A DNA stretch of 64,000 bases from Alphaproteobacteria bacterium (GCA_964291265.2 OZ219747.1:2784001-2848000), one strand, 5' to 3'; shown: positions 10,858-18,581, numbered from the stretch's first letter. A program made the numbers and translations. The notes: a model not told the origin generated them from the sequence alone.

Positions 10858-12144
10858 TTGAGTCTGGATGTCACTCGCCTCGCTAACGGTCTGAGGATCG
10901 TCACCGACAGGGTCGAGGGCGTCGACTCTGCCGCGGTGGGTATCTGGGTCAATGTCGGCGCGCGCGACGAACCTGATCATCTCCAGGGTATCTCCCACCT
11001 TCTCGAACACATGGCCTTCAAGGGCACAAAACGACGCAATGCGCGCATGATTGCCCAGGAGATCGAGGATGTCGGCGGATACGTGAACGCCTACACCACC
11101 CGCGAGAACACGGCGTACCACGCCAGGGTTCTCGGGGACGACGTGCCGCTGGCCATCGACGTTCTCGCAGACATCCTGCAGAACTCCGTCTTCGACGAGT
11201 GCGAACTCACGAAGGAGCGGTGGGTGGTCGAACAGGAGATCGCCCAGGTTTTCGACACGCCGGATGATCTCGTCTTCGATCTCTTCCAGGAGTGCGCCTT
11301 TCCCGACCAGCCCATGGGGCGCTCCATCCTCGGCACGCCGGAGAGCCTTGCCGACATGACCAGGCAGACCCTGCTCGACCACATGACCGGCCACTACACC
11401 GCCGAGAGCATGGTGCTGTCGGCTGCCGGAGCCGTCGATCACGGAAAGATCGTCCGTCTGGCGGAGGACCGGTTCTGCGACCTGCCGCATTCCAACGGTC
11501 ATATGCCGCGTCCCGCCACCTATGCCGGAGGGGCCATCGACCACAGTGATGACGTCGAGCAGGTCCATCTCGTCATGGGATGCCCGGGGTTCGCAGTTCG
11601 TGATGACAACTACTACCCGGTCCAGTTCCTGAGCAATGCTCTCGGCGGCGGCATGTCGTCGCGTCTCTTCCAGGAGATTCGCGAGGACCGCGGACTCGCC
11701 TACGCCATCTACTCGTTTCACTCGGCCTTCGAAGACAGCGGTCTCTTTGGCATCTATGCCGGGTGTGCCGAAGCGGATGCCCGGGAGGTGACGAACCTGA
11801 TCGTCGATGCGATCGCGCGAACGGCGGACGGCCTTGCCGAAGACGAGATCGAACGGGCCCGCACGCAGATGAAGGCGGGACTTCTGATGGCGCGTGAGAG
11901 CACGACCGCGCGGTGCGAGGCACTGGCGCGCCAGATGCTCGTCTTCGGGCGCACCGTTTCGGAGGAAGAGATCATCGGCAAGATCGAGTCCGTGCGCGCG
12001 GCGGACATCCGCGAGTGTGCCGACGTCCTGTTCCAGGGCGTCCGTCCTGCAGTGGCCTGCATCGGACCCGAGGAGGGCATTGTTCCCTGCGGGCGAATCC
12101 TGTCGGGCCTGGGCAAGGGAGAGGGCGTGTGTTCGCCTTCATGA
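10858..12144 (+). CDS. M16-family zinc peptidase
   Basis: HLLEHMAFKGT (HxxEH), NAYTTRE, LGGGMSSRLFQEIRE. Confidence 0.95.
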   Translation: MSLDVTRLANGLRIVTDRVEGVDSAAVGIWVNVGARDEPDHLQGISHLLEHMAFKGTKRRNARMIAQEIEDVGGYVNAYTTRENTAYHARVLGDDVPLAIDVLADILQNSVFDECELTKERWVVEQEIAQVFDTPDDLVFDLFQECAFPDQPMGRSILGTPESLADMTRQTLLDHMTGHYTAESMVLSAAGAVDHGKIVRLAEDRFCDLPHSNGHMPRPATYAGGAIDHSDDVEQVHLVMGCPGFAVRDDNYYPVQFLSNALGGGMSSRLFQEIREDRGLAYAIYSFHSAFEDSGLFGIYAGCAEADAREVTNLIVDAIARTADGLAEDEIERARTQMKAGLLMARESTTARCEALARQMLVFGRTVSEEEIIGKIESVRAADIRECADVLFQGVRPAVACIGPEEGIVPCGRILSGLGKGEGVCSPS

Positions 12145-12746
12145 GGAAACAGGCGTCGCGGCAGCAGCCGGCCCTTCTCGAGAGCGCGAGGCTCGTCCTT
12201 CGCCCTCCTGCCATCGATGACTGGCCGCAATGGGCCAGGTTGCGCCATGAAAGCCGGGAGTTCCTGCAGCCTTGGGAACCGACATGGCCACGCAACGCCC
12301 TGACCAGAGGCGCCTTCACCCGAAACATCAAGCTGCAGGCGCGCGATCGTGAGGCCGGAACGGCTTTCAGCTGGTTTCTGATCCGGCGAGATGACGATGC
12401 GCTGATGGGTGGCGTGGCGGTGAGCGACATTCGTCGCGGCGTGGCAAGTTCGGGAACACTCGGATACTGGATTGGCCGTTCCTACGCCCGCCAGGGATAC
12501 ATGAGCGAGGCCGTGGAGGCGGTGATCGACCATGCCTTCGAAGGGTTCGGCCTGCATCGCCTCGAGGCAGCCTGCCTGCCAGCCAACGAGGCAAGCCGCC
12601 GGCTTCTTGCCTCCCGGGGGTTCAGCCTCGAGGGGATTGGCCGCAGCTACCTCAAGATCGACGGCGACTGGCGCGATCACCTGTTGTTTTCCCTGGTCGA
12701 TTTCGAATGGCGTTCCCCCGACCCGCTTCTCGGGCCGAAGCCCTGA
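12141..12746 (+). CDS. RimJ/RimL-family GNAT N-acetyltransferase
   Basis: FLQPWEPTW, LGYWIG...GYMSEAV, LHRLEAACLP.N.AS, W.DH; ATGA coupling with the peptidase gene. Confidence 0.92.
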   Translation: MRKQASRQQPALLESARLVLRPPAIDDWPQWARLRHESREFLQPWEPTWPRNALTRGAFTRNIKLQARDREAGTAFSWFLIRRDDDALMGGVAVSDIRRGVASSGTLGYWIGRSYARQGYMSEAVEAVIDHAFEGFGLHRLEAACLPANEASRRLLASRGFSLEGIGRSYLKIDGDWRDHLLFSLVDFEWRSPDPLLGPKP

Positions 12747-13064
12747 GAGCGTGAATCGCGGGTCCTTCCCGTCGTGGGTGGCATGCACCTGTCTCTCGCA
12801 TCGCAAGCGGGTGCGAGGACGGCAGGACTTTCCTACGCTACGGCTGATTTTTCGGGAAGCCGATGAATCGCGCCCGAATCGGCCATCTGATCTTTCGCGA
12901 GGCCGACGAATCGAGGCCGAATCGGGATGTCCTGGACGGATTCCGTGGCTTCAGTGCCGTCCGCATGGCGACACCGGCAGCGTTTTCGGCCCGGATGCTT
13001 GGTTCTTGATGTTCTAGCAGCGTTCCGGGGTCCCCGGACGCTCAAGGCGTCTCAGGGCCGGGTC

Positions 13065-15647
13065 CTGCCCATTAGTCACAAAAGGTGTCATTACAAGTGA
13101 ACTGAGAGGGGGTCTTCGCCACTGCCGCCGCCTGCCAGAAGCACGCCCGGCGATCGTGCGGACCGAATGCTTGACAAGACCAGCGCACCCTGTCAGGCTG
13201 CCCAACGTCATGGACTACACTCCCCTGCCGATCCGGTCAACATTGGACCAACCCGAGGCCCTGGCCCGGCTGCAGCCGATCCTGGATGGCTCGTCGAGCC
13301 GCTGGGCCGCAACCCGCGCCACCTGTGCCGCCTTTGCGCTGCGCGACGGGCGCGGACATCTGCGCCTGCAGAGCTGCCTGTCGGCGCTTGAAGCCCTGGA
13401 CCGGGCCGGGCGCATCCGGCTGCCGCCGGCGCGTCCGGGGCCGGCGCACCGGGCGCCGCGCACGGATCCCCGGACGCGGCCGGCGCCGCCGTTGCCGGAG
13501 GTCCCGGACCAGGCGGGGCAGATCCCCGACCTTGCGGTGTCGCCGGTGACCGACCGCGCCGGCAAGCACACGTGGGCGGCGATGATGGCCCGGGAGCATC
13601 CTCTCGGTCCGGTGCGGGCGGCGGGATCGCAGATCCGCTACGTCCTGACCTCGGGCGAGGGGGTTCTCGGCGGCTTCCTGTGTGCGGCGCCGACCCGTGT
13701 GCAGGCGGCGCGGGATCGCTGGATCGGCTGGACCCCGGCGCAGTGTGCGGCGGGGCGGCACCGCATCGTCGGCCTGGCGCGCTTCCTGATCCGGCCGGCT
13801 CTTGGGCGCTGCCGCAACCTCGCGTCGCGGGCGCTCGGCCTGTGCCTGCGCCGGGTGGTTGGGGACTACGAGGCCCTCTACGGTCTGCGTCCGGTACTCA
13901 TCGAAACGTATGTCGGTCCCGAGCACGACGGCACCAGCTGCCGGGCGAGTGGATGGATCCGGGTCGGGCAGACGGCCGGTCGCGACCGTCATCGCCGGCC
14001 GGTGGCGGTCAAGCAGGTCTGGCTACGCCCGCTCAGCACCGACTGGCGTTGGCAGCTGGGGGTCCGGGTGGAGCCGTTGACGCCGTGGGCGGGTCTGGAC
14101 AGCACCCGGTGGGCGGAGCAGGAACTGGCCGGAGCGGACTTCGGCGATGTCCGGCTGAGCCGGCGTCTTGTACAATCGGCTGCTCTGCTGGCGCAGACGC
14201 CTTCGAAGACCTTCGTGACCGCAGCCCGGGGAGATGCAGCGATGGTGACCGGCTATTATCGTCTGATTGAGCACCCCGATAGCGCCGCCGTCTCGGCACA
14301 GGCGATCCTCGCTCCGCATCGCAAGCGGACCCGTCAGCGGATCCAGGGACAGGACACGGTGCTGCTGATCCAGGACGGCTCCGACATCAACCTGGCGACG
14401 CACCAGGCCTGCGAGGGTCTCGGCGTGATCTCCCGCAACCGGGGATCCAAGGGCACTCTCGGTCTGCATCTGCACACGACCCTCGCCGTGGCGGCGGACG
14501 GCATCCCGTTGGGCGTGCCACGGATCGAGTTCGATGCGCCGCCGCTCGAGGGCGCCGCCGACGACGACCGTGACACCAAGACCCAGCGCTGGGTCCGGGG
14601 ACTGGAAGACAGCGGGGCCCTGATCGACGGATTGCACGAGGTTCGGGCCGTGGCCGTCATGGATCGCGAAGGCGATGCCTTCGAGGTCCTGGAGGCCTGG
14701 CGGCGCCTGGAAGGGCGGATCCACATCCTCGTGCGGGCCCGTCATGACCGCAGTCTCGGCAAGGGACGATTGAAGCTGTTCGAACGCATGCGCCGACAGC
14801 CGGTCCGGGAGGCCTGGACGGTATCGGTGCCGCGGTTGTCGGTACGGCGGGCGACGGGGTCGCAGTCGGCCTTCATCGGACGGGCCGCGCGCACCGCTCC
14901 CTGCGCCCTGCGCTGGAAGAGCCTCGAGATACCGGTTCCCGAAGGACGCGCCGAACCGGGCGCGCGGGCGATCCGCCTGTCACTGGTCCATGTCCAGGAA
15001 ACCGCCGATCCCGAGGACGGAGCGAAGCCGCTGGAATGGCTGCTCCTGACCTCGCTGCCGGTGAGCGATGCCTGCCAGGCCCGGGAAGTGGTCGGCTTCT
15101 ACGAGCGGCGCTGGCGCATCGAGGAGTTCTTCCGCATCCTCAAGTCCGGCTGCGACGTGGAGACGGGAGCCCATCGCACGCGGGAACGCGTCGAACGGGC
15201 CGTCGCCCTGCGCGCCGTCATCGCCTGGAGACTGTCGGTCCTGGCCCTGCTCGGGCGCGAGACGCCGGGGCTCGAGCCCGGGGTGCTGTTCTCCGAAGCC
15301 GAGCTGGCGGTGATCGCGGACTTTGCCCGGCAGCGCCGCCTGGAGGCGCCCGACAACCTCGGCGCCGCCATCACCCTCCTGGCCCGCATGGGCGGGTACC
15401 TCCAGCGCCGGCACGACGCACCGCCCGGCGCCCACGTGGTCTGGGAAGGATACAGCCACCTCGCGCTCGGCGCCGACATCGTCGAGCGGGCCCGGCAGGT
15501 CGGCCACCAGAGCGAGGTGAAGCGCTGGATCTCGGGCTGAGGGCTGAGGCAAGGGCGCCTCGACCCACACCTTTCGCTTACCTCACGGCACCCTCAATGT
15601 GTGGCAAAAGTGCACTTGTAATGACAGGGTTTGTGACTAATGGGCAG
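13065..15647 (+). mobile_element. IS4-family (IS50/Tn5-like) element
   Basis: 35-bp TIRs CTGCCCATTAGTCACAAA..., 32/35 identical; 8-bp TSD GCCGGGTC at 13057-13064 and 15648-15655. Confidence 0.93.
13210..15540 (+). CDS. DUF4338-fused IS4-family DDE transposase
   Basis: N-part ARDRWIGW, RFLI, NLASRALG, IETYV; C-part DFGDVRLSRRL, IQDGS, VMDREGD, YERRWRIEEFFRILK (YREK signature). Confidence 0.92.
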   Translation: MDYTPLPIRSTLDQPEALARLQPILDGSSSRWAATRATCAAFALRDGRGHLRLQSCLSALEALDRAGRIRLPPARPGPAHRAPRTDPRTRPAPPLPEVPDQAGQIPDLAVSPVTDRAGKHTWAAMMAREHPLGPVRAAGSQIRYVLTSGEGVLGGFLCAAPTRVQAARDRWIGWTPAQCAAGRHRIVGLARFLIRPALGRCRNLASRALGLCLRRVVGDYEALYGLRPVLIETYVGPEHDGTSCRASGWIRVGQTAGRDRHRRPVAVKQVWLRPLSTDWRWQLGVRVEPLTPWAGLDSTRWAEQELAGADFGDVRLSRRLVQSAALLAQTPSKTFVTAARGDAAMVTGYYRLIEHPDSAAVSAQAILAPHRKRTRQRIQGQDTVLLIQDGSDINLATHQACEGLGVISRNRGSKGTLGLHLHTTLAVAADGIPLGVPRIEFDAPPLEGAADDDRDTKTQRWVRGLEDSGALIDGLHEVRAVAVMDREGDAFEVLEAWRRLEGRIHILVRARHDRSLGKGRLKLFERMRRQPVREAWTVSVPRLSVRRATGSQSAFIGRAARTAPCALRWKSLEIPVPEGRAEPGARAIRLSLVHVQETADPEDGAKPLEWLLLTSLPVSDACQAREVVGFYERRWRIEEFFRILKSGCDVETGAHRTRERVERAVALRAVIAWRLSVLALLGRETPGLEPGVLFSEAELAVIADFARQRRLEAPDNLGAAITLLARMGGYLQRRHDAPPGAHVVWEGYSHLALGADIVERARQVGHQSEVKRWISG

Positions 15648-17590
15648 GCCGGGTCAGGGCGTTGATGGCCTCGCGACGGTCCAGTTGTAGGCGGCGCCGG
15701 GTTTCGGCGAGGCTTTCGGCCTCGCGGCGGTTGGCGAAGATCACCGCGAGCGCGATGTTGTTGAGGCTGGCCCGGTTCGCCGGGCCGTTGTCAGTGCGGG
15801 TCAGGCAGGCGTCTTCGCCGAAGACGCAATCCCTTTGTCGATGGTTCAGATTTTCCACGGCCCAGTGGCGGCGGTTCAGTCGCAGCAACTCTTCCGGCGA
15901 CGTGGCCCCCGTATCGAGAGAGGTGATGATGTAATCGGTTTCCGTGTAATCCTTCTCTTCTTCCTTCCCGGCATCGCCGGAGCCTTTCTTCCCGGCATCG
16001 CCGGGGCCTTTCTTCCCGGCATCGCCGGAGCCTTCCTTCCCGGCATCGCCGGGGCCTTCCTTCCCGGCATCGCCGGAGCCTTCCTTCCCGGCATCGCCGG
16101 AGCCTTTCTTCCACGGCTCCCGATAGCGGGTGATGCGGGCGACCTGACGGACGCCCGGATAGTTGATCAGACCGTCCAACGGGACGAGGACGCTGATCGA
16201 ACGCTGCTCCAGTCGACCGTGCGCCTTGTCGAACGGCTCCGTGAAGTGGCCGGTAGCGTCTTTTTGCCAATTGATGCTGTCGAGGATGGCGAAGGTCTCC
16301 GGGGCGTTGCCCTTGACGACGAAGACGTAATCCGCGCGTTGTGTGATCAGCTTCGCGGTATGGCGTGTCGTGTGCAGCGCGTCGAGGGTGATCACCTTGC
16401 CGCCGATGTCGCTGCGCTCCAGGAGATCGTGCATGGCCGCCAGTTCGCCGCCTTCGTCGTTGAAGTTCAGGAGGGAAAAGGGCGCGCCGGTCTCATGGTC
16501 GACAAGGGCCACGGTCTCTCAGACGGCCATCGCCGTTGCGGTTGGCGCCGCGGATGCGCTTGCCGTCGGCGGCGAGTGCACGGGCGAGGTGAAGCCGAGG
16601 CCGGGACCAGCGGGTGAGCACATCCTCCAGAGCCTCGGGGTCGATCGACTGGATAACCCGGTGGATGGTGGACTTGGAGACGGGCTCGCGAAGCCCCGTC
16701 TTCGGGTTAAGCCACGCGCCGATGGCCTCCAACTCCTCCTGGGACAGGGACCGCGCGAACTGCGCGGCGGCGACACAGCCCTTCATGTTGGCGAACTCGG
16801 CGAGCACGTGCACGGTGAGCACCGATGCCGCGGTATGCTTCCTTCCCTGCGCCCGGCGGAAGTCGGGAATGGCCGCGAGCTCGGCGTAGAGCGAGCGCAG
16901 CACCTTGGGGTCCCGGGGCGCCAGTTCGGGGCATGAGGGCGGCGCCACGTCGGGGGGAAGCGGCAGCGGGCTCGACAGCAGCGCCCGGGCATCGCGCCTC
17001 AGTGCCGTAACGTAGATATCCTTGGGCTTGCCGTGAGGATCGGTGTAACGCCCGTTGGAGCGGGCAAACCCCTTGGTCTCACCCAGACACGTCCAGCCCG
17101 CAGCCTTCAACATCGTGCCGGCAAAGATCTCCGGATCGCAGAACGTCTCCGCCAGCAGCACCCCGTGGCCGTGCACCTGCAGCCAATCGTCACAGAGCCG
17201 GCGCGTCATGCACGCAAGGAAACAGGAAGCAAGGTTCGCAAACACCCCGGGCTTGGAGAGGATCAAGAACCGCGTGTTGTTGGCTACCATCGAGAGCCGC
17301 TGGAACTGCTGCTCCGGCTTCCAGCCGGTCCACTGGTCGCGGGGAGCGCACTTGAAGGCGCCGTTCTGCCACGCCGCCAGCCCCAGCCAATGGCCCCTGA
17401 AGGTCGCAAGGTAGCGCAGACCGCGACCCGCCAGGCGACGGAAGCCGAGATAGTGGTGCTTGTTCATCAGCGCGTCCCACAGCGGACGCTCCTCCGGCCT
17501 CGCCAGGCGAACATCGACCTCAGACAGGGAAAAACCCTCAGGTGCTTCCTGATGGATCGGGACAGCTTCCATGAGCTTGCGAATCGACAT
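15637..17590 (-). pseudogene. DUF4338-fused ISAs1-family transposase, frameshifted near 16518 and interrupted in its last codons
   Basis: HHYLG, NNTRFLI, NLASCFL, ETFCD; then PDFRRAQGRKH, AADGKRIRG, ITLDALHT, VKGN, HWAVEN, D..FGED. Confidence 0.9.
15961..16112. repeat. 24-bp tandem repeat, 6 copies plus a partial, inside the ISAs1 transposase
   Basis: Unit TT(C/T)CTTCCCGGCATCGCCGG(A/G)GCC, encoding G(S/P)GDAGK(E/K) on the minus strand. Confidence 0.97.
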
Positions 17591-17850
17591 GACCGGACCG
17601 TCGCACATCCCAAGCGGGATGGCCAGCGGAAAATGTCCGCGCGCGTGCAACATACGAACGCCTGACGTCAAGTGAAATCAAGCGAATTCCAGCGTGGGAA
17701 GGCCTTGGCGAGGACGGCAGCAATGGGTGCATGCATGGCAGAAATCGGCAAGGATGGTCCTGTATCGGCCACGATCAGGTGGAATCGGCCCCTGCCGCAG
17801 TCTTCGAGATCCGGTCGTCCGACGGTGCGGATGGTACCGCCGGCGTCAGG

Positions 17851-18438
17851 TCAGTTCGGCTTGCCGGTGGCGCCCACGTCGGTGGCCAGCATGGCCGGGT
17901 CGATGCCGAGTTTCGTCAGCGCCCCCGTCCACTTGCTGGCGAGGTCACTGTGGAAGAGGAGCCCGGGATCGGCGTCGCAGACGAGCCAGCCGTTGTTCTG
18001 GATCTCGGCATCGAGCTGGCCAGGCGCCCACCCGGCATAGCCGAGGGCCAACAGACTGTTGCGGGGTCCGTCCCCCCGGATCATGGCCTTGAGGACATCG
18101 ACAGTGGCTGTGAGGGCGATGCCGCCGGAAATCTGCAACGTTCCGTCACGCATGTAGTCGTCGGAATGCAGCACAAACCCCCGCCCTGTCTCCACGGGAC
18201 CGCCGAAGTGCACGCGGATTGCATCGCCGCTGTCGCCTGGATCGAGACCGAGGCGTTCGACGACATCGCCGACGGTGATGCGCTCCAGTGACTTGTTGAC
18301 GACAAGGCCCATCGCCCCCTTGTCGCTGTGGGAGCACATGTAGATCACGGTCCGTTCAAATCGCGGATCACCGATCGTCGGCATGGCGATCAGACAACGT
18401 CCTTCGAGCTGACTGTCATCGTCGATTGGTTCGTTCAT
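17851..18438 (-). CDS. YqgE/AlgH family protein
   Basis: LIAMP..DPRFERTVIY, GAMGLVVN, GGPVE..RGFVLHS, LGYAGW. Confidence 0.95.
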   Translation of the reverse strand: MNEPIDDDSQLEGRCLIAMPTIGDPRFERTVIYMCSHSDKGAMGLVVNKSLERITVGDVVERLGLDPGDSGDAIRVHFGGPVETGRGFVLHSDDYMRDGTLQISGGIALTATVDVLKAMIRGDGPRNSLLALGYAGWAPGQLDAEIQNNGWLVCDADPGLLFHSDLASKWTGALTKLGIDPAMLATDVGATGKPN

Positions 18439-18581
18439 GAATCCATGTCCATGGCCGGGGGTCAGCATAGCCGTTGCGGCTGACCTTTGCATCTCCGGAG
18501 CCTGAGGGGGTTGAGGAAGGATGTCGGTCGGTCCATATACCATGACACAGGTCACCCAACCCGGACGAGAGGAACGAGACC

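Follow-up and report, generated by a model that had tools for sequence, protein, structure and literature searches.

The insertion sequence (IS) IS50 is bounded by 19-nt inverted repeats and duplicates 9 bp of its target, while IS of the ISAs1 family possess short inverted repeats and a target duplication of ~10 bp. In Druantia, the druA gene is found in the dru operon together with that of the DruE helicase. A link between transposons and the DNA-modifying enzyme Mom of phage Mu was reportedly predicted by Iyer, Tahiliani, Rao and Aravind in Cell Cycle in 2009, who are said to have connected Mom-like proteins computationally with diverse bacterial transposases and to have inferred that transposons modify DNA. 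Mom (PDB 8BV8, PF25680) is the product of a late phage gene and performs a Gly-tRNA-dependent modification of adenine N6 in dsDNA (PMC13219725). Its residues R101 and S114 are essential (PMC13219725, PMC7261163), and the conserved Arg is described as a hallmark of Mom homologs that GNATs at large do not share (PMC7261163). The Mom residue numbers used here are ten below the (241-aa) numbering of PMC13219725, in which these two residues are R111 and S124.

Here, we describe two nested IS within a 64,000-nucleotide stretch of DNA from an Alphaproteobacteria bacterium (GCA_964291265.2 OZ219747.1:2784001-2848000), referred to below as the window and numbered from its first letter. An element of the IS4 family (13065-15647, plus strand) is inserted into an interrupted, non-autonomous copy of an ISAs1-family element (12823-17707, minus strand), an anatomy that had been proposed in an earlier note on this DNA and that is borne out to the base. 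The note had further placed DUF4338 (now PF14236) in both transposases and had taken their N-terminal domains to be homologous. Indeed, the two proteins score 53.8 and 72.3 bits against a PF14236 cut-off of 27, and the domains share 36% identity over 140 aa (E 6e-19). The domain is predicted to be a GNAT whose nearest solved relative is Mom, and it may serve as an accessory that acylates DNA bases and aids the entry of IS into new hosts, a reading on which our judgement is evenly divided.

The inner element resembles IS50/Tn5 (PDB 1MUS, 1MUH) in its Tnp_DNA_bind, DDE_Tnp_1 and Dimer_Tnp_Tn5 domains, but differs in that its N-terminus is longer by ~300 residues, its inverted repeats measure 39 nt and its duplication is of 8 bp. 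The outer element is similar to ISAs1 (NF033564) in its DDE_Tnp_1_assoc and DDE_Tnp_1 domains, 17-bp inverted repeats and 10-bp duplication, and is unlike it in carrying a Mom-like N-terminal domain of ~210 aa, a variable 24-bp array and a frameshift. The IS domain and Mu Mom have a common GNAT fold; however, their identity is 13%, and the IS domain has an RD..W.GW insertion of its own and is fused to, or located beside, transposases. Furthermore, where Mom has a helix-turn-helix (HTH)-like insertion after the GNAT core, which is needed for its activity, the model of the ISAs1 domain displays a short hairpin.

Fold and conserved residues of the Mom-like domain

The AlphaFold2 (AF2) model of the ISAs1 domain, which was used for the fold searches, displays a GNAT fold (pLDDT 91). 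In a VIA ranking of 997 chains, Mu Mom (8BV8) came first with a Z-score of 14.8 (172 aligned residues, root-mean-square deviation 3.8), the runner-up reaching 12.8. Among the PDB matches listed by Foldseek, Mom had the highest query TM-score (0.55), and a protein named Mom was found at rank 5 of a structural search of a viral library. Alignment of the domain with a profile of 13 Mom sequences by hhalign returned a probability of 96% (E 1e-9 to 4e-9); the control GNAT profile used with hhalign contained three sequences only and is therefore underpowered, the VIA ranking being the better control. DUF4338 is also named a GNAT in PMC10853773. The Mom/GNAT relationship suggested in the earlier note is thus supported by the top-ranking structure, the profile alignment and the aligned H48, R101 and S114.

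Neither window protein matched the Pfam Mom family PF25680 at E 0.1, and a single one of 63 relatives passed its cut-off (P0344, 27.6 versus 27.1). A phmmer search of PDB sequences with the ISAs1 domain produced chance matches only, and a profile search (A1) retrieved Tn5 as the sole match.

Mom residues H48, R101, N111, S114 and G146 align with the domain. Across 141 diverse relatives, H48 and R101 are kept in all 141, S114 in 137 and Y149 in 113, while an acidic residue occupies the position of D139 in 125. This conservation bears on another possible activity, namely that the domain acylates protein or RNA, be it its own transposase or a host factor (for instance a clamp, a nucleoid protein or a tRNA), and would thereby adjust transposition. 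Proteins and small molecules are the substrates of most GNATs, the Z-score gap between Mom and the N-terminal acetyltransferases is just 2, and fusion to a transposase would favour self-modification; a DndF-fused DUF4338 GNAT is, moreover, read as a protein-targeting effector in PMC10853773. Yet the Arg described as specific to Mom homologs (PMC7261163) is invariant in the domain, whose partners are structurally diverse and are fused at either end or encoded separately, with DNA, and not a protein surface, as their common factor. We consider acylation of protein or RNA to be unlikely.

Only the IS4 protein, of the two in the window, has a helical module of ~100 aa ahead of the domain. In a model of its residues 1-288, this module is packed against the GNAT as one rigid unit (pTM 0.88), and a search of the ESM Atlas with the module returned unnamed clusters only. 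Judging from the models, the module may take the place of Mom's HTH-like insertion in the IS4 and IS66 versions of the domain, though not in that of ISAs1.

Distribution of the domain and its relation to DruA

Repeats make up 22.5% of this 4.8-Mb genome, as estimated with an automatic library in which element ends were poorly defined and which served for repeat coverage only. An iterated profile detected 93 domain loci, of which 88 lie within ten IS families: six IS50-type, one other IS4, two ISAs1 and one IS66, the last with the domain as a stand-alone gene. A PF14236 match was found in 11 of 22 members of the genus. Searches with the two queries retrieved 342 and 496 public relatives, with the same architecture in nearly all of those listed, and the family as a whole comprises 10,084 clusters at 50% identity. 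The transposase partners in 63 scanned relatives were IS50-type, other IS4, ISAs1, IS66 (with the domain C-terminal), IS630, ISAzo13 and IS5. The IS66 version is spread across taxa at 78-90% identity, and its closest relatives are mostly from metagenome-assembled genomes of Alphaproteobacteria. A genuine C-terminal IS66 fusion is represented by P0299, with 25 members; apparent IS66-domain fusions of 1100-1300 aa at some other loci were discarded, the one that was checked (L085) being an alternative reading frame.

Two further arrangements were noted. In Ca. Thiodictyon (L140:3138-6340, NZ_CP020372.1), a stand-alone DUF4338 gene is followed by an integrase and an IS91 transposase, a further transposase class. 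In Microbacterium phage Antuna (L029:145-878), a Mom-like gene directly adjoins a tRNA-Gly gene, which fits the Gly-tRNA donor of Mom.

The domains pass the Pfam cut-off of the family that also contains Druantia DruA, and DUF4338 occurs in DndF as well (PMC10853773), which leads to the question as to whether the domain is a host-beneficial cargo related to DruA, either an anti-phage defence or an addiction module that is toxic on loss. The window domains, however, match ~125-190 of the 297 profile positions and fall on a separate branch, and PADLOC reported a DruA match at E 0.03 for one window protein and none for the other. The flanking open reading frames (ORFs) contain no other Druantia gene, and the elements are not part of a Druantia operon. 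A full-length DruA-like protein (L015:1315-2796, G037) is found on a long separate branch and seemingly lacks the His, Arg and Ser of Mom, in an alignment that is uncertain and possibly unreliable. Finally, domain-deleted copies form the majority of the IS66 elements described below. A defence or addiction cargo is thus very unlikely in our estimation, and the nested elements are not a Druantia system.

Conservation and loss of the domain

In 81 of 111 IS4 relatives and in 76 of 86 ISAs1 relatives, conservation is higher in the domain than in the transposase part; all of these relatives were retrieved with the domain, which biases the comparison toward its conservation. For 36 distinct IS66 versions, the median dN/dS was 0.18 for the domain versus 0.39 for the tnpC transposase, the choice of loci by the domain favouring a low domain value. 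In four ISAs1 and IS4 pairs, the two parts were similar, at 0.25-0.48 for the domain and 0.27-0.49 for the transposase.

Within the genome, 30 of 35 IS66 right ends carry a domain deletion, while two are full and three could not be classified. Three deletion types remove most or all of the domain, in 19, nine and two copies with differing flanks. An open frame of 555-619 aa is located upstream in 14 of the domain-deleted copies, and the one such frame tested is an IS66 transposase according to Pfam; in both full-domain copies, the transposase frames are broken. Since 30 of the 35 right ends are domain-deleted copies at different sites, single hops appear not to need the domain in cis. The domain, which elsewhere evolves under purifying selection, is therefore kept over long times, yet dispensable in cis for spread within a genome that holds many copies. 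The IS66 stand-alone gene encodes the helical module and the GNAT (e.g., L142, L012:3518-4438), with three independent GNAT deletions, the commonest of which joins the helical module in frame to the final six codons.

A possible role in entry into new hosts

We propose that both IS carry an old, co-inherited Mom-like GNAT that would transfer an acyl or aminoacyl group to a DNA base. Either the helical N-terminal module or the transposase to which it is fused would deliver the domain to DNA, and the modified base, which by analogy with Mom might be adenine at N6, would lie in or around the element, or else be modified genome-wide at a low level; the donor is possibly a charged tRNA. Such a modification could shield the element, or the DNA that carries it, from restriction on reaching a new host. 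With the benefit arising at host entry, or shared in trans among copies, single hops within a genome would need no domain in cis. A bolder version, toward which we are rather sceptical, is that many unrelated IS families encode an active Mom-type hypermodifier whose mark is a shared good, on which the deleted IS66 copies free-ride, with selection acting at the change of host. Were this the case, IS-laden genomes would carry a transposon-installed modified base.

A number of observations speak against the proposed role in host entry. The domain was found on only 2 of 72,556 plasmids and on none of 50,697 phages searched with one IS50-type query, which is thin for a transfer aid, although cultured hosts are strongly represented in both collections. 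Expression of Mom is toxic (PMC7261163), and the presence of ~50 full-length domains per genome is hard to reconcile with such toxicity, except where they are silent or confined to local action. The rarity on plasmids and phages and the toxicity of Mom together weigh against a simple anti-restriction version. In addition, in-cis dispensability was seen in IS66 alone, whereas the domain is retained by the IS4 and ISAs1 families of this genome, and the dispersed IS66 deletion copies could in part have arisen from gene conversion. As regards the kinship with Mom, the Foldseek E-value places Mom seventh, after aminoglycoside acetyltransferases, and hhalign against a single Mom sequence gave a probability of 1.8%. 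An essential residue of Mom, R141 (R151 in PMC13219725), is without a conserved counterpart in the domain. The IS4 domain of the window is changed at three positions (Y49P, D139G and Y149C), with P at the position of Y49 in 118 of 118 close IS4 relatives, while the ISAs1 domain has L for Y149 and retains Y49 and D139. Because R141 lacks a counterpart and the IS4 domain is changed at Y49, D139 and Y149, the domain is best described as Mom-like in build, and only as a candidate member of the Mom family.

These substitutions and the lack of R141, together with the modelling of helical module and GNAT as one rigid unit, would also suit a non-catalytic nucleic-acid-binding module, at least in the IS50-type clade, that acts in end protection, autoregulation or target choice. 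Nevertheless, the His, Arg and Ser of Mom are retained in nearly all of the 141 relatives, a fuller motif is preserved in the IS66 and ISAs1 versions, and there is no target preference for kin elements. A pure binding function is, in our opinion, quite unlikely, and we favour base acylation at host entry as the role of the domain.

Organization of the nested elements

The repeat-bounded inner element occurs in four copies genome-wide, three of which are identical. Its terminal inverted repeats (left, 13065-13103, plus strand; right, 15609-15647, minus strand) measure 39 nt with 90% complementarity, and are flanked by the 8-bp target duplication GCCGGGTC (13057-13064 and 15648-15655); each of the three further genomic copies possesses an 8-bp duplication of its own. 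An intact fusion ORF of 776 aa (13210-15540, plus strand) encodes the helical N-terminal module (~aa 1-100) and the Mom-like GNAT (~aa 105-285), followed by Tn5-type DNA-binding, DDE and dimerisation domains (in Pfam: PF14236, Tnp_DNA_bind, DDE_Tnp_1 and Dimer_Tnp_Tn5). The transposase scores 274 bits against NCBIfam NF033590 (cut-off 160) and presents the Tn5-type signature YERRWRIEEFFRILK at aa 631, Y-(2)-R-(3)-E-(6)-K being the signature of IS4-family transposases of the IS50/Tn5 type, to which the inner element belongs. A TTGACA hexamer, read by eye, is located 39 nt 5' of the ATG of the IS4 gene (window 13171-13210) with scant room for a leader, and a leaderless transcript is possible.

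The ends of the outer element are common to 15-16 genomic copies. They consist of imperfect 17-bp terminal inverted repeats (left, 17691-17707, minus strand; right, 12823-12839, plus strand), bordered by identical copies of a 10-bp target duplication at 12813-12822 (left) and 17708-17717 (right). The transposase of the window's copy is not a single intact frame: a one-base frameshift near 16520 (16519-16523, minus strand), overlooked in the earlier note, splits it into two ORFs on the minus strand. ORF 1 (16493-17671; likely start ATG 17590) encodes the Mom-like GNAT/PF14236 domain (~16970-17530) and DDE_Tnp_1_assoc and stops past the frameshift, while ORF 2 (15637-16512) encodes the DDE catalytic part and ends in LTRPAH within the end of the inserted element. 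As the frameshift is common to 9 of the 13 genomic copies that have this junction, it represents a real sub-lineage, most likely mobilised in trans.

Translation of the ISAs1 transposase originally stopped at the TGA at 13052-13054 (minus strand), and an uninterrupted copy (L001) encodes 699 aa with the C-terminus ...EAINALTRP, which confirms the proposal that the IS4 element was inserted into the last codons of this gene. The insertion merely alters the C-terminus to ...LTRPAH, and the outer protein is thus not truncated by it. An intact copy scores 145 bits against NCBIfam NF033564 (cut-off 70) and, with DDE_Tnp_1_assoc plus DDE, inverted repeats and a 10-bp duplication, the outer element belongs to the ISAs1 family. 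Its DDE gene also contains an in-frame 24-bp tandem array (15960-16103, minus strand; 8-aa unit), which varies from 2 to 17 units among 12 ISAs1 copies and looks lineage-specific, because the closest database relatives are shorter (~606 aa). At G000:C2 near 575715-575900 and ~17 further genomic sites, a 184-bp element resembling a miniature inverted-repeat transposable element was observed with ISAs1-type ends.

The genes that flank the nested elements, and lie outside them, are of the housekeeping type: a RimJ-type GNAT acetyltransferase on the left (11913-12746, plus strand) and AlgH/DUF179 on the right (17851-18555, minus strand). Contigs from two of three public runs, all of one study, connect 12812 to 17708 and so represent the empty site. 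Given this empty site and the identity of three of the four inner copies, both elements are recent.

Nesting and exchange between families

The earlier note had seen in the nesting a route for domain swapping between IS families. In six cases genome-wide, an element of one domain-bearing family has inserted into that of another, and two chimaeric proteins are known: P0254 passes from IS66-type sequence (77-87% identity) to ISAs1-type sequence (43-55%) at the conserved ETFV motif, while P0222 combines a domain of the ISAs1 type with an IS5 transposase. Such cases would be expected if the shared domain directed nesting and thereby provided an active route of exchange. However, domain-bearing elements abut a domain-bearing element at 14 of their 112 ends, and other elements do so at 36 of 367 (Fisher p 0.48, for hand-picked true terminus types, with internal breakpoints omitted and with the two ends of an element not being independent). 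Both rates exceed the 3.7% target size, as would be expected if IS are tolerated landing sites. No productive hybrid was found among the junctions of domain-family insertions in the genome, and P0254 and P0222 are each a single record on one contig, so that they may hint at rare exchange or may reflect accidents of assembly or gene calling.

The phylogenetic comparison called for in the earlier note also fails to support swapping. In a domain tree of 109 rows, built by a quick method from 151 prepared rows and retaining 14 of 56 stand-alone rows, seven family changes are needed for seven transposase families, the minimum being six, and the two domains of the window fall in separate family-specific clades. 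Domain and transposase patristic distances are correlated at r 0.79 in the IS50-type set (37) and 0.90 in the ISAs1 set (17), with no strongly supported conflicts in these congruent trees. Since the domain trees follow the transposase trees, transfers between families are old and rare. In the window itself, the two elements are in opposite orientation. Hence, nesting directed by the domain is highly improbable, and the insertion of IS4 into ISAs1 most likely occurred by chance, IS being abundant throughout this genome.

Two other junctions deserve mention. The same insertion of an IS50-type element into an ISAs1 element, at an identical position, is found at G000:C2:3656007-3658375 and 4249530-4251901, which suggests that the nested pair was mobilised or copied whole. 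At G000:C2:1863640, two distinct IS50-type families are joined head to head at internal positions that correspond to each other (1225 and 1222), a possible recombination scar.

Significance of transposon-borne Mom-like domains

A literature search retrieved no paper on the fusion of this domain with transposases and no experimental follow-up of the predicted Mom-transposase link, although these families may already be recorded in Iyer 2009/2013 or the accompanying supplements. The census, the series of natural IS66 deletions and the negative results on nesting and swapping are new; nesting itself is ordinary. As the DruA label is attached to a family of 10,084 clusters, IS of this kind are easily mis-scored as anti-phage defence. 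The genome makes the question of function testable, with its 93 loci in all, its ten families and its domain-deleted IS66 variants as built-in controls. If the domain does modify DNA, then even transposons of the simplest kind would encode an enzyme for base modification, and would constitute a source of new DNA-labelling enzymes.

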